The position numbers and the translations under genes were made by a program. Of a stretch of 64,000 nucleotides of DNA, positions 38,685-54,385 are shown in pieces. The DNA comes from Escherichia coli. GTDB lineage: Bacteria > Pseudomonadota > Gammaproteobacteria > Enterobacterales > Enterobacteriaceae. The number at the start of each line of letters is the position of its first letter. Within the stretch, counting starts at the first letter, position 1. The stretch is from assembly GCF_013315695.1 (NCBI RefSeq), contig NZ_CP054353.1. One strand, written 5' to 3'. The notes below the pieces were generated by a model. The model saw only the letters and a list, made by a program, of their open reading frames with translations, was not told the DNA's origin and searched no databases.

Positions 38685-38699
38685 TGATAATCATTATCA
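38685..38699. promoter_or_regulatory. Fur box overlapping the sufA promoter
   Basis: TGATAATCATTATCA about 45-60 bp upstream of the sufA ATG. Confidence 0.55.
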
Positions 38700-38744
38700 C
38701 TAACATGCTGTTATACGCTGAAAGCGATGAAGTGAGGTAAATCG

Positions 38745-47433: not shown

Positions 47434-47989
47434 GACAGTCTTAGTCTTTAAGTTGAGAAGGATGGGAGAAACTTGCTTTCTGGGCGCACTGCCGGAAAGC
47501 GAATCCGGTATTACGAAAGTGGTGGTGCCTCGCTCTAAGGATAGGTGACATCGAAAAAGCGTGCAGAGGAATGTGTGCTTGTGTCTCAGCCCAACGTGAG
47601 TGCCTGTTTTTGAGTCGTTGAGTTCTACAGTCCAAAGTGCTGAAACCATTCAAGAGTCAATTGGCGCGCATTATACGCTGAAATTAATCCAAAAGGAAAA
47701 CAAAAACAGCGTTTCAAAAAATATACAACTTGTTAGACAATAAATTGTTATCAAAGATTTAACGTTCCAGGGAAAAGGTTACGCAAAAACTTCGCTGTTT
47801 GCGCAACGTCTGGTGCCGGGGTTGTCACTGTGAGGATAAGTGAAAGTTCATCCGGTGTATAAATATATCATCGCTCAATTGCTACAGTTAAAATAATTTA
47901 TCGCGTTATTTGTCTGATTTTGTTTGATTTTTGTCTAATTGGTTAGATTGATATATGCTGATAGTTGGCATGATAAATAGGTATAAAGA

Positions 47990-48199
47990 ATGGGAAATCG
48001 GACAAAAGAGGATGAACTGTACCGAGAAATGTGCAGAGTTGTCGGTAAAGTTGTGCTGGAAATGCGCGATCTGGGGCAGGAACCAAAGCATATTGTTATC
48101 GCAGGCGTATTACGTACAGCATTAGCCAATAAACGCATTCAGCGCAGTGAGCTGGAAAAGCAGGCGATGGAAACCGTCATTAACGCACTGGTAAAATGA
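47990..48199 (+). CDS. fumD: Small protein YdhZ (fumarase D)
   Basis: 69 aa MGNRTKEDELYREMCRVVGKVVLEMRDLGQEPKH... Confidence 0.8.
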   Translation: MGNRTKEDELYREMCRVVGKVVLEMRDLGQEPKHIVIAGVLRTALANKRIQRSELEKQAMETVINALVK

Positions 48200-48439
48200 C
48201 CATTCAGGATGAGGCGATAAGCTTCATCCTGATATTCTTGCTTCAGTTGCGGTCGAGTTAATCATTCTAAATAACAACTGCTGAAATTATACGAATTTCG
48301 ATATGTGTTTTAATTTATAACGATAATATTATTTTTGTTTTCTGCAATGACCGTCACAAATAATTGTCGCTTAAGTTAAATTTATTTCAAATGATAATAA
48401 ATATCAGTTCACTTATAATTTCTTGCTTTGTGATTTTAA

Positions 48440-48453
48440 TTGATAACGATCAA
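48440..48453. promoter_or_regulatory. Putative FNR site upstream of ydhY
   Basis: TTGATAACGATCAA, perfect TTGAT-N4-ATCAA, about 200 bp upstream of the ydhY ATG. Confidence 0.45.
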
Positions 48454-48654
48454 TGTTAAGGGCTCAGAATAATCACATTATTTTTTCTCCTAACCATAAA
48501 GGATTAGTTTATCGGCGTTAAATCTTTTCTCATACACTATCAGGTTAGGGAAAATATCTGGTGTTGAGGACAGAGTCAGCAGCGTATTAGTTGAATGCTT
48601 AATATCAATCTGCTGAATTGTCAGCACTGTGTTTGCGAAGAGGATGCGAAATAA

Positions 48655-51404
<2,750 letters not shown>

Positions 51405-51407
51405 GGA

Positions 51408-52055
51408 ATGGGTGAGATGAACCATCAGGATGAATTGCCGTTAGCGGAAGTCAGCGAAATTGACGAGGCGAAGCGGCAATGGTTGCAGGGGATGCGTCAC
51501 CCCGTTGATACGGTAACCGAACCAGAACCTGCTGAAATCCTGGCAGAGTTCATTCGCCAGCATTCTGCGGCTGGGCAGCTGGTGGCGCGCGCCGTGTTTC
51601 TCTCGCCGCCCTATTCGGTTGCAGAAGAGGAACTGTCAGTTTTACTGGAAAACATTAAGCAGAACGGAGACTACGCGGATATCGCGTGTATGACGGGAAG
51701 CCAGGATGATTACTATTACTCAACGCAGGCCATGAGTGAAAACTACGCGGCGATGTCTTTGCAAGTTGTGGAGCAGGACATTTGTCGCGCTATTGCACAC
51801 GCCGTTCGTTTTGAGTGCCAGACGTATCCTCGTCCTTACAAAGTCGCCATGCTGATGCAAGCGCCATATTACTTCCAGGAAGCGCAGATTGAAGCCGCGA
51901 TCGCCGCGATGGATGTTGCACCTGAATATGCCGATATACGGCAGGTGGAGTCATCGACGGCGGTGTTGTACTTGTTTAGCGAGCGATTTATGACCTATGG
52001 CAAGGCGTATGGCTTATGCGAATGGTTCGAGGTAGAGCAGTTTCAGAACCCCTGA
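51408..52055 (+). CDS. ydhW: Uncharacterised protein YdhW
   Basis: 215 aa; synteny. Confidence 0.85.
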   Translation: MGEMNHQDELPLAEVSEIDEAKRQWLQGMRHPVDTVTEPEPAEILAEFIRQHSAAGQLVARAVFLSPPYSVAEEELSVLLENIKQNGDYADIACMTGSQDDYYYSTQAMSENYAAMSLQVVEQDICRAIAHAVRFECQTYPRPYKVAMLMQAPYYFQEAQIEAAIAAMDVAPEYADIRQVESSTAVLYLFSERFMTYGKAYGLCEWFEVEQFQNP

Positions 52056-52118
52056 AATTTCAGGGAGATGTCATGGATAGGGTGGACAGTTGCAGCCACT
52101 GCATTAGGGGATAATCAG

Positions 52119-52787
52119 ATGTCCTTCACTCGACGCAAATTTGTTCTGGGGATGGGAACAGTAATCTTTTTTACTGGTTCTGCGTCTTCTCTGTTAGCGA
52201 ACACGAGGCAAGAAAAGAAAGCTCGGTATGCCATGATTCATGACGAGTCACGGTGCAATGGCTGTAATATTTGCGCCCGCGCATGCTGTAAAACCAATCA
52301 CGTCCCCGCTCAGGGAAGCCGTTTATCGATAGCACACATTCCAGTCACCGATAACGACAACGAAACGCAGTATCACTTTTTTCGCCAGTCATGTCAGCAC
52401 TGCGAAGATGCTCCGTGCATCGACGTTTGTCCGACAGCGGCATCGTGGCGTGATGAGCAGGGGATCGTACGGGTAGAAAAATCGCAGTGCATCGGGTGCA
52501 GTTATTGCATTGGCGCTTGTCCTTACCAGGTTCGCTACCTTAACCCTGTCACTAAAGTGGCAGATAAATGTGATTTCTGCGCTGAGTCCCGACTGGCAAA
52601 AGGCTTTCCGCCCATTTGCGTCAGCGCCTGCCCGGAACACGCCTTGATCTTTGGTCGCGAAGATAGCCCAGAAATTCAGGCGTGGTTGCAGGAAAATAAA
52701 TACTATCAATATCAGCTACCTGGTGCCGGGAAACCGCACCTGTATCGCCGGTTCGGTCAACATTTGATTAAAAAGGAAAATGTATGA
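52119..52787 (+). CDS. ydhX: Tat-signal 4Fe-4S ferredoxin-like protein
   Basis: 222 aa from MSFTRRKFVLGMG... (twin-arginine motif), Cys clusters. Confidence 0.85.
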   Translation: MSFTRRKFVLGMGTVIFFTGSASSLLANTRQEKKARYAMIHDESRCNGCNICARACCKTNHVPAQGSRLSIAHIPVTDNDNETQYHFFRQSCQHCEDAPCIDVCPTAASWRDEQGIVRVEKSQCIGCSYCIGACPYQVRYLNPVTKVADKCDFCAESRLAKGFPPICVSACPEHALIFGREDSPEIQAWLQENKYYQYQLPGAGKPHLYRRFGQHLIKKENV

Positions 52788-53569
52788 ACCCGTCGCAACA
52801 TGCTGAACAGTTTCAGAGCCAGTTGGCGAACTATGTGCCACAGTTCACTCCCCAATTTTGGCCGGTGTGGTTGATCATTGCCGGACTATTGCTGGTAGGG
52901 ATGTGGTTGGTGCTGGGGCTGCATGCCTTGCTTCGTGCTCGTGGCGTGAAGAAATCAGCCACCGATCATGGTGAGAAGATTTATCTTTACAGCAAAGCGG
53001 TCAGATTATGGCACTGGTCGAATGCGTTACTCTTTGTATTGTTGCTGGCAAGTGGGCTGATAAATCACTTTGCGCTGGTGGGCGCAACTGCGGTTAAAAG
53101 TCTGGTTGCGGTGCATGAAGTTTGCGGATTTTTGTTACTGGCATGCTGGCTTGGCTTTGTTCTGATCAATGCCGTTGGGGGTAATGGTCACCACTATCGC
53201 ATTCGTCGTCAGGGGTGGCTGGAGCGAGCGGCAAAACAAACGCGATTCTATTTGTTTGGCATTATGCAGGGGGAAGAACATCCTTTCCCGGCAACAACCC
53301 AGTCTAAATTTAATCCCTTACAGCAGGTTGCCTATCTTGGTGTCATGTATGGATTGCTGCCGTTGTTACTATTGACGGGGCTGCTGTGTCTCTATCCGCA
53401 AGCCGTGGGAGATGTGTTTCCTGGCGTAAGATACTGGTTATTGCAGGCGCATTTTGCTCTGGCATTTATAAGCCTCTTTTTTATCTTCGGTCATCTTTAT
53501 CTTTGCACCACGGGGCGTACGCCACACGAAACCTTTAAAAGCATGGTCGATGGCTATCACCGGCACTAA
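52784..53569 (+). CDS. ydhU: Cytochrome b-type membrane subunit (PhsC-like)
   Basis: 261 aa, hydrophobic, His-rich TM helices; start overlaps ydhX stop. Confidence 0.85.
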   Translation: MNPSQHAEQFQSQLANYVPQFTPQFWPVWLIIAGLLLVGMWLVLGLHALLRARGVKKSATDHGEKIYLYSKAVRLWHWSNALLFVLLLASGLINHFALVGATAVKSLVAVHEVCGFLLLACWLGFVLINAVGGNGHHYRIRRQGWLERAAKQTRFYLFGIMQGEEHPFPATTQSKFNPLQQVAYLGVMYGLLPLLLLTGLLCLYPQAVGDVFPGVRYWLLQAHFALAFISLFFIFGHLYLCTTGRTPHETFKSMVDGYHRH

Positions 53570-53572
53570 CGA

Positions 53573-54385
53573 ATGATCATTACACGAGCAGACCTGCGAG
53601 AATGGCGTATCGGAGCGGTGATGTATCGCTGGTTCCTGCGCCATTTCCCACGCGGCGGTAGTTATGCCGATATTCATCATGCACTGATTGAGGAAGGATA
53701 TACGGACTGGGCGGAGAGTCTGGTTGAGTATGCGTGGAAAAAATGGCTGGCGGATGAAAACTTCGCGCATCAGGAAGTTTCTTCTATGCAAAAACTGGCC
53801 ACAGATCCCGGAGAGAGACCATTTTGCAGTCAGTTTGCCCGCAGCGACGATCATGCTCGCATCGGCTGTTGTGAGGATAACGCCAGAATCGCAACCGCTG
53901 GGTATGCTGCACAAATTGCCAGTATGGGTTATAGCGTGCGGATTGGAAGTGTCGGCTTTAACAGTCACATTGGCAGCTCCGGTGAGCGTGCACGGGTTGC
54001 TGTAACCGGCAATTCTTCGCGGATAAGCAGCGCTGGAGATAGCAGTCGGATTGCGAATACCGGAATGCGAGTACGCGTTTGTACATTGGGTGAACGATGT
54101 CATGTCGCCAGTAATGGTGACCTGGTGCAAATCGCCAGCTTTGGCGCAAACGCCAGAATTGCCAACAGCGGCGACAATGTACACATCATTGCCAGCGGTG
54201 AAAATTCAACGGTAGTGAGCACGGGCGTGGTCGACTCAATTATTCTTGGGCCAGGAGGAAGCGCCGCACTGGCATATCATGACGGCGAAAGAGTTCGCTT
54301 CGCCGTCGCCATTGAAGGTGAAAACAATATTCGAGCCGGAGTCCGCTATCGTCTTAATGAACAGCATCAGTTTGTTGAGTGCTGA
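53573..54385 (+). CDS. ydhT: Uncharacterised protein YdhT
   Basis: 270 aa; synteny. Confidence 0.85.
   Translation: MIITRADLREWRIGAVMYRWFLRHFPRGGSYADIHHALIEEGYTDWAESLVEYAWKKWLADENFAHQEVSSMQKLATDPGERPFCSQFARSDDHARIGCCEDNARIATAGYAAQIASMGYSVRIGSVGFNSHIGSSGERARVAVTGNSSRISSAGDSSRIANTGMRVRVCTLGERCHVASNGDLVQIASFGANARIANSGDNVHIIASGENSTVVSTGVVDSIILGPGGSAALAYHDGERVRFAVAIEGENNIRAGVRYRLNEQHQFVEC

Follow-up and report, generated by a model that had tools for sequence, protein, structure and literature searches.

The 14-bp palindrome TTGATAACGATCAA at positions 48440-48453 is very probably the activator site of a class II FNR-activated promoter that drives the ydhYVWXUT operon. It was found in a 64,000-nucleotide stretch of Escherichia coli DNA (contig NZ_CP054353.1), which we analyzed as a whole and refer to below as the window. 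The FNR site at ydhY has already been published, and the finding is correct, ordinary and brings nothing new in itself. Indeed, FNR occupancy, the -42.5 position of the site, FNR-dependent anaerobic induction, sigma70 recruitment, and a Fur peak together with Fur dependence have all been reported on the identical sequence of K-12/CFT073.

The box was read directly from the plus strand of the window sequence and, being a palindrome, has no strand of its own. Its two half-sites fit TTGAT-N4-ATCAA at 10/10 positions, and no other exact match to this consensus (TTGATNNNNATCAA) occurs on either strand of the 64 kb, which bears out the perfect FNR palindrome of the original prediction. Four other sites in the window match the consensus at 9/10 positions. 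With 0.18 exact matches expected per window, and at least one found in 18 of 100 dinucleotide-preserving shuffles, such a match is by itself modestly improbable, and function cannot be proven from sequence alone. We rated the ydhY site above chance because of its position, its conservation and its published occupancy. The site had been placed about 200 bp upstream of ydhY in an AT-rich region, and both statements hold: the distance to the first base of the ydhY ATG (48655) is 202 bp from the final box base and 208.5 bp from the box center at 48446.5, and the fumD-ydhY spacer has a G+C content of 32% as compared to 49% for the whole window, falling to 26% between 48233 and 48439. The upstream neighbor fumD (ydhZ; 47990-48199, plus strand) ends 240 bp before the box. 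Directly after its stop codon at 48199, a terminator-like hairpin, made up of a stem of 12 bp and a T-rich tail behind it (48204-48232, plus strand), sets fumD apart from the ydhY promoter region. We also observed a Dam site (GATC, 48448-48451) within the right half of the FNR box. The last N4 base, the G that creates this GATC, was invariant in all 23 aligned sequences as opposed to the other three N4 positions, which vary; a preference of FNR or methylation may be the reason.

The case for occupancy comes from published genome-wide data on K-12, in which ydhY lies on the minus strand. In Table 1 of Myers et al. (2013; PLoS Genet 9:e1003565; PMC3688515), ydhYVWXUT is listed as a direct target of FNR activation, with a ChIP-seq summit at 1,752,688 and one FNR motif located -42.5 from the known ydhY start, the start sites of that table being drawn from EcoCyc and Kim 2012. 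The same table records that sigma70 occupancy and expression both rise anaerobically and credits Partridge et al. (2008) with prior evidence of FNR binding at this operon. A K-12 ChIP-chip peak for FNR lies at 1,752,706. Table S6 gives TTGATCGTTATCAA at 1752702 for ydhY, a predicted FNR site for which it records a ChIP peak and the absence of nucleoid-protein (NAP) enrichment, and this sequence is the reverse complement of the window 14-mer. In the other supplementary tables, the sigma70 ChIP-seq peak of ydhY at 1752642 increases from 46.9 aerobically to 177.4 anaerobically (Table S2), the operon is labeled as "Activated" by FNR (Table S8), and the aerobic/anaerobic expression ratio of ydhY is 0.25, which corresponds to anaerobic induction (Table S12; Myers et al., 2013). 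Using the FNR box as an anchor to transfer K-12 coordinates, the FNR summit maps to approximately 48467 of the window and the sigma70 peak to approximately 48513. With a K-12 ChIP-seq peak on the same 14-mer and an operon activated by FNR, the assignment of the site to ydhYVWXUT made in the original prediction agrees with experiment.

These data also fix the likely anatomy of the promoter. We infer the exact +1 in this strain by adding 42.5 to the box center, which would place it at approximately 48489 (plus or minus about 1 nt, plus strand) according to the -42.5 of Myers Table 1, a secondary source, on identical K-12 sequence; the supplements of Kim 2012 contain no ydhY start site. The base at this position is a C, an uncommon initiating base. 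Compared with the published K-12 start, the box sits at -42.5, an appropriate position within a few nt of the -41.5 of class II sites. A start out of place with respect to the site would have refuted the original prediction, and the comparison thus speaks for it. A -10 hexamer, CATTAT (48476-48481, plus strand; 4/6 to TATAAT), follows 22 bp after the FNR box. The sequence at the -35 position, TGTTAA (48454-48459, plus strand), matches TTGACA at only 2/6 positions, as expected because the activator overlaps the -35. A consensus promoter scan called no promoter at the ydhY -35/-10 position itself.

According to the model that we favor, dimeric [4Fe-4S]-FNR would bind the two TTGAT half-sites centered at -42.5 when oxygen is absent, overlap the very poor -35 and recruit RNA polymerase to the CATTAT -10. 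Transcription would then begin at approximately 48489, and ydhY would be preceded in the mRNA by a leader of 166 nt. The contacts between FNR and the polymerase at ydhY are presumed to be those generally known from class II FNR promoters. Of the two outcomes foreseen by the original prediction, an unusually long leader or an additional promoter, the long leader stands, at 166 nt from the published -42.5, and no second promoter is needed. The word "unusually" is justified to a mild degree only: the lengths of E. coli 5' UTRs are concentrated at 20-40 nt, yet leaders of 100-200 nt are by no means exceptional. The label of "sigma70 class II" may be an oversimplification, because the sigmaS holoenzyme transcribes the ydhY promoter better than sigma70 in vitro; the promoter is also rpoS-dependent in stationary phase in one medium (Maciag et al., 2011).

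Within E. coli, the promoter region is nearly universal. Several complete E. coli chromosomes, that of SMS-3-5 among them, match a 461-bp query (48200-48660) at 100% identity, and the region was found in 5,422 of 5,426 complete E. coli genomes. A 101-bp promoter segment that contains the FNR box, the -10 and 32 nt from the start of the transcript was present in at least 5,386 of these 5,426 genomes (coverage of at least 80%). From the fumD terminator to ydhY, the window matched K-12 MG1655 at 98%; over 476 bp from the fumD stop codon to the first ydhY codons, the two sequences differ by 10 substitutions and a single 1-bp indel. The FNR box, its flanks, the -10, the NarL/NarP-type 7-2-7 repeat described below and the initial 30 nt of the transcript are unaffected. 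The O157:H7 allele, which diverges most among the E. coli alleles sampled, has unchanged half-sites and differs at one N4 position and at three positions of the stretch that separates the box from the -10. A human faecal isolate, E. coli 2017.17.01CC, carries an IS1A insertion with an associated deletion (L034:2554-3320) that replaces all sequence from just past the FNR box up to and including the N-terminal portion of ydhY, leaving an orphaned FNR box and a ydhY pseudogene.

The comparison was then extended to other genera. A scan of reference genomes for YdhY identified 30 loci in Escherichia, Citrobacter, Leminorella and Limnobaculum, of which 29 were analyzed; the remaining locus (L027) ends at a contig end and has no upstream region. 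Each of the 26 loci from Escherichia and Citrobacter has a 10/10 FNR box at a distance of 155-241 bp from the ATG, and the three loci of Leminorella and Limnobaculum have TTGATAACGATCAC (9/10), approximately 140-145 bp from the ATG once the ydhY start codon was correctly placed. Across the 29 loci, the CATTAT -10 is found at a fixed spacing from the FNR box, which is 22 bp in every Escherichia and Citrobacter locus. Among 20 Escherichia and Citrobacter sequences, the invariant columns were 10/10 in the half-sites, 1/4 in the N4, 3/22 in the spacer between the box and the -10, and 5/6 in the -10 hexamer, and positions +1 to +20 had a mean majority frequency of 0.92. Constant half-sites, a drifting N4 and flanks, and a fixed -10 geometry are the footprint that would be expected of a working FNR site. 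Citrobacter sp. NCU1 harbors two ydhY loci on different contigs (L008 and L024), 93% and 88% identical to the query, and each has a perfect FNR box approximately 200 bp upstream; the promoter layout therefore appears to have survived duplication or transfer.

We weighed the FNR-activated promoter against three other readings of the palindrome. An exact match in AT-rich DNA could arise by chance, or the site could be silent under nucleoid proteins. The shuffles that contained such a match by chance and the 26-32% GC of the region leave room for this view, and in K-12 as many as 124 of 187 high-scoring predicted FNR sites lack a ChIP-seq peak, mostly under H-NS, IHF or Fis (Myers et al., 2013; PMC3688515). 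The FNR signal at ydhY also increases upon deletion of hns and stpA. However, Table S6 of the same study marks the ydhY site as ChIP-bound with no NAP enrichment, the operon is activated by FNR, and the half-sites are kept across genera where the N4 and flanks drift, which makes a chance or silent site extremely improbable. The box could also belong to another regulator of the CRP/FNR family, such as CRP, or it could regulate fumD rather than ydhY. CRP sites, like FNR sites, are inverted repeats, the two types being related, and fumD is situated 240 bp upstream in the same orientation. What tells CRP from FNR sites is the G of the TGTGA/TCACA core. The half-sites TTGAT and ATCAA lack this discriminating G, so that the palindrome does not qualify as a CRP site (TGTGA-N6-TCACA core), and the ChIP-seq occupancy is that of FNR. 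As for fumD, the box lies downstream of this gene and beyond its terminator hairpin, and therefore cannot be a fumD promoter element. We give this reading, for either the regulator or the target, next to no credence.

The third reading keeps FNR but gives its box to a second promoter, the option of an additional promoter that the original prediction had raised. The box could be an operator repressing a promoter just upstream, or a ydhY-proximal promoter could make most of the mRNA. A sigma70-like 10/12 match, ATGATA-17-TATAAT, is indeed found at 48391-48419 (plus strand) just upstream of the FNR box; transcription from it would start at approximately 48426, and the box would then lie at roughly +14 to +27. 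Promoter-like matches are not strongly enriched here, however, with 7 found against 4.0 +/- 2.0 in shuffles, and the TATAAT of the upstream match is not strictly kept in Citrobacter. No sigma70-like -35/-10 match was called by the consensus promoter scan on the plus strand between the FNR box and the ydhY ATG. Moreover, the anaerobic sigma70 peak adjoins the box, about 25 bp past the inferred +1, and FNR activates rather than represses the operon. A second promoter served by this box is thus highly unlikely, and the additional promoter raised in the original prediction is unnecessary. The preferred reading remains a single class II promoter with its start near 48489.

Just downstream of this start, we found a NarL/NarP-type 7-2-7 inverted repeat, TAACCAT-AA-AGGATTA, at 48491-48506 (no strand; +3 to +18). 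Of its 16 positions, 14 agree with TACYYMT-NN-AKRRGTA and 12 with the engineered high-affinity site TACCCCTAAAGGGGTA. Since 3.2 matches of equal quality are expected per window by chance, the repeat is not significant alone. Its position is shared by all four genera, and in Limnobaculum the repeat comes nearer to the consensus (TACCCCC-TT-AGAGGTA). Regulation of ydhYVWXUT by NarL/NarP has been published (Partridge et al., 2008; Microbiology 154:608). Because of its conserved position beside this published regulation, the repeat is likely the operator for nitrate/nitrite repression by NarL/NarP, and under nitrate or nitrite these regulators would likely block the ydhY promoter there. We likewise infer an operator role for this repeat and for the Fur motif discussed below. 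In Citrobacter sp. Cu233 (L011:2823-2842) and C. gillenii (L017:2820-2839; both coordinates approximate), an extra insertion of approximately 20 bp lies directly after the 7-2-7 repeat. The insertion holds a second palindrome (TACCCGTGTTTAGGGTA in Cu233), similar to another inverted repeat of the NarL type, whose halves are 3 bp apart.

Upstream of the FNR box, the published data point to a further input from Fur. In CFT073, a Fur ChIP-seq peak lies upstream of ydhY at 1910890, a peak is found in MG1655 too, and the ratio of ydhY expression between the delta-fur mutant and the wild type is 0.07, a 14-fold fall that is independent of RyhB (Banerjee et al.). A Fur-box-like motif, AATGATAATAAATATCA, is located at 48390-48406 of the window (no strand; approximately -99 to -83), which puts it some 50 bp upstream from the FNR box. 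Its CFT073 counterpart lies at 1910865-1910881, 9-25 bp from the Fur peak, and the motif is conserved in Citrobacter. The 19-mer enclosing it (48387-48405) matches the Fur consensus at only 14 of 19 positions, and ten such matches occur in the window. AATGATAATAAATATCA is therefore best described as a candidate for the site through which Fur would exert the activation published for ydhY. Taken together with the loss of expression without fur, these observations suggest that Fur acts positively at ydhY, perhaps against H-NS. The FNR ChIP-chip signal at ydhY increases from 0.29 to 1.82 when both hns and stpA are deleted (Myers et al., 2013; PMC3688515), and this rise fits partial silencing by H-NS of the 26% GC DNA upstream of the box. 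The upstream AT-rich DNA with its Fur-associated motif would thus form a part of the promoter that is apparently partly silenced by H-NS. The best Fur-box match of the window is a different sequence, GTTAGTGATAATGATTATC, at 38686-38704 on the minus strand (16/19; 0.01 expected by chance). By its position it should adjoin sufA on the upstream side and would then be the known Fur operator of the suf operon.

With the +1 near 48489, the 5' leader of the ydhY mRNA would span 48489-48654 (plus strand) and measure 166 nt, or 165 nt in K-12, and it carries the Shine-Dalgarno sequence AAGAGGA at 48638-48644 (plus strand). At all 29 related loci, the leader is 93-199 nt long. We looked for signs of a structured element in it. 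No Rfam family matched the region 47700-48900 at E <= 1. A 187-nt segment covering the leader and start region folded at -44.7 kcal/mol as compared to -41.0 +/- 4.3 kcal/mol for shuffles (z = -0.87), not above background, and the RNAalifold consensus for the leaders of 20 Escherichia and Citrobacter sequences had 9 pairs, an energy of -4.76 kcal/mol and no compensatory change. A structured cis-regulatory leader of the riboswitch or attenuator type was rejected at ydhY, as neither an Rfam match nor a covarying structure was found. An inverted repeat formed by CCTAACC (48490-48496, +2 to +8) and GGTTAGG (48542-48548, +54 to +60) is conserved in Escherichia and Citrobacter. As an RNA stem, CCUAACC/GGUUAGG was also rejected: the pairing is kept at 95.7% but the arms are near-invariant, with one compensatory change in a single sequence, and five sequences break the same pair. 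The two arms may instead be a pair of DNA sites.

A 19-codon upstream ORF (48595-48654; MLNINLLNCQHCVCEEDAK), whose TAA directly abuts the ydhY ATG, is kept in Escherichia. It was rejected as a conserved peptide, as an in-frame start codon is absent from 10 of the 26 loci of Escherichia and Citrobacter. Its Cys-rich tail looks conserved because of nucleotide conservation around the Shine-Dalgarno sequence, and the ORF is probably not translated as a conserved peptide. Conservation within the leader is highest at +1 to +20, at +48 to +66 (GATCnGGTTAnGG) and in the final 41 nt, which surround the Shine-Dalgarno sequence. In C. koseri, the middle of the leader lacks approximately 60 nt, and this stretch is therefore dispensable. 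That the leader carries a second, undescribed layer of control of ydhYVWXUT, either a downstream operator or control at the RNA level, seems to us rather unlikely. As an operator, it may hold further sites for NarL/NarP or another factor, with CCTAACC (+2 to +8) and GGTTAGG (+54 to +60) acting as a pair; at the RNA level, it may control ydhY translation or mRNA stability.

The operon itself spans 48655-54385 on the plus strand, as delimited from the window ORFs and the RefSeq annotation of SMS-3-5. ydhY (48655-49281, with its ATG at 48655) is followed by ydhV (49302-51404), annotated as an aldehyde ferredoxin oxidoreductase, then by ydhW (to 52055), ydhX (to 52787), ydhU (52784-53569, annotated phsC) and ydhT (53573-54385), all ORFs on the same strand. 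The partner genes of ydhV encode ferredoxin-like and cytochrome b-type proteins. The FNR site acts as the oxygen switch of this operon, whose anaerobic oxidoreductase system is poorly understood. The layout of its promoter, with the Fur motif at approximately -91, FNR at -42.5, the 7-2-7 repeat at +3 to +18 and a long leader, is kept from Escherichia to Citrobacter, and its FNR, -10, 7-2-7 and long-leader parts reach Leminorella and Limnobaculum. A reading from sequence only thus recovered an experimentally validated FNR activator site and its correct long leader; otherwise it adds little, and the cross-genus comparison of the promoter layout contributes modest detail only.

Set against known systems, the promoter is the same locus and element as PydhY of K-12 (Partridge et al., 2008; Myers et al., 2013): no base differs in the box, the -10 or the 7-2-7 repeat, and the differences are strain-level polymorphism only, with a leader of 166 nt here and 165 nt in K-12. 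Among FNR-activated, NarL-repressed class II promoters, frdA and dmsA share with ydhY an FNR site that overlaps the -35 and NarL heptamers around the start, as well as the same logic, on without oxygen and off with nitrate, a better acceptor. At frdA, however, a high-affinity 7-2-7 at -4/+6 represses, whereas the candidate 7-2-7 of ydhY lies slightly further downstream (+3 to +18) and, unlike the frdA/dmsA type, departs from the consensus at one position per heptamer. The ydhY leader is also much longer, and a Fur-dependent positive input has been reported for ydhY. In this last respect, ydhY may be likened to ftnA, where Fur activates by antagonizing H-NS. An upstream Fur ChIP-seq peak, a loss of expression in delta-fur that is independent of RyhB, and an effect of H-NS on AT-rich DNA are all features that ydhY would have in common with ftnA. 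The Fur-like motif at ydhY differs in that it reaches only 14/19 and has ten equal matches in the window, and a mechanism like that of ftnA is thus proposed by analogy.
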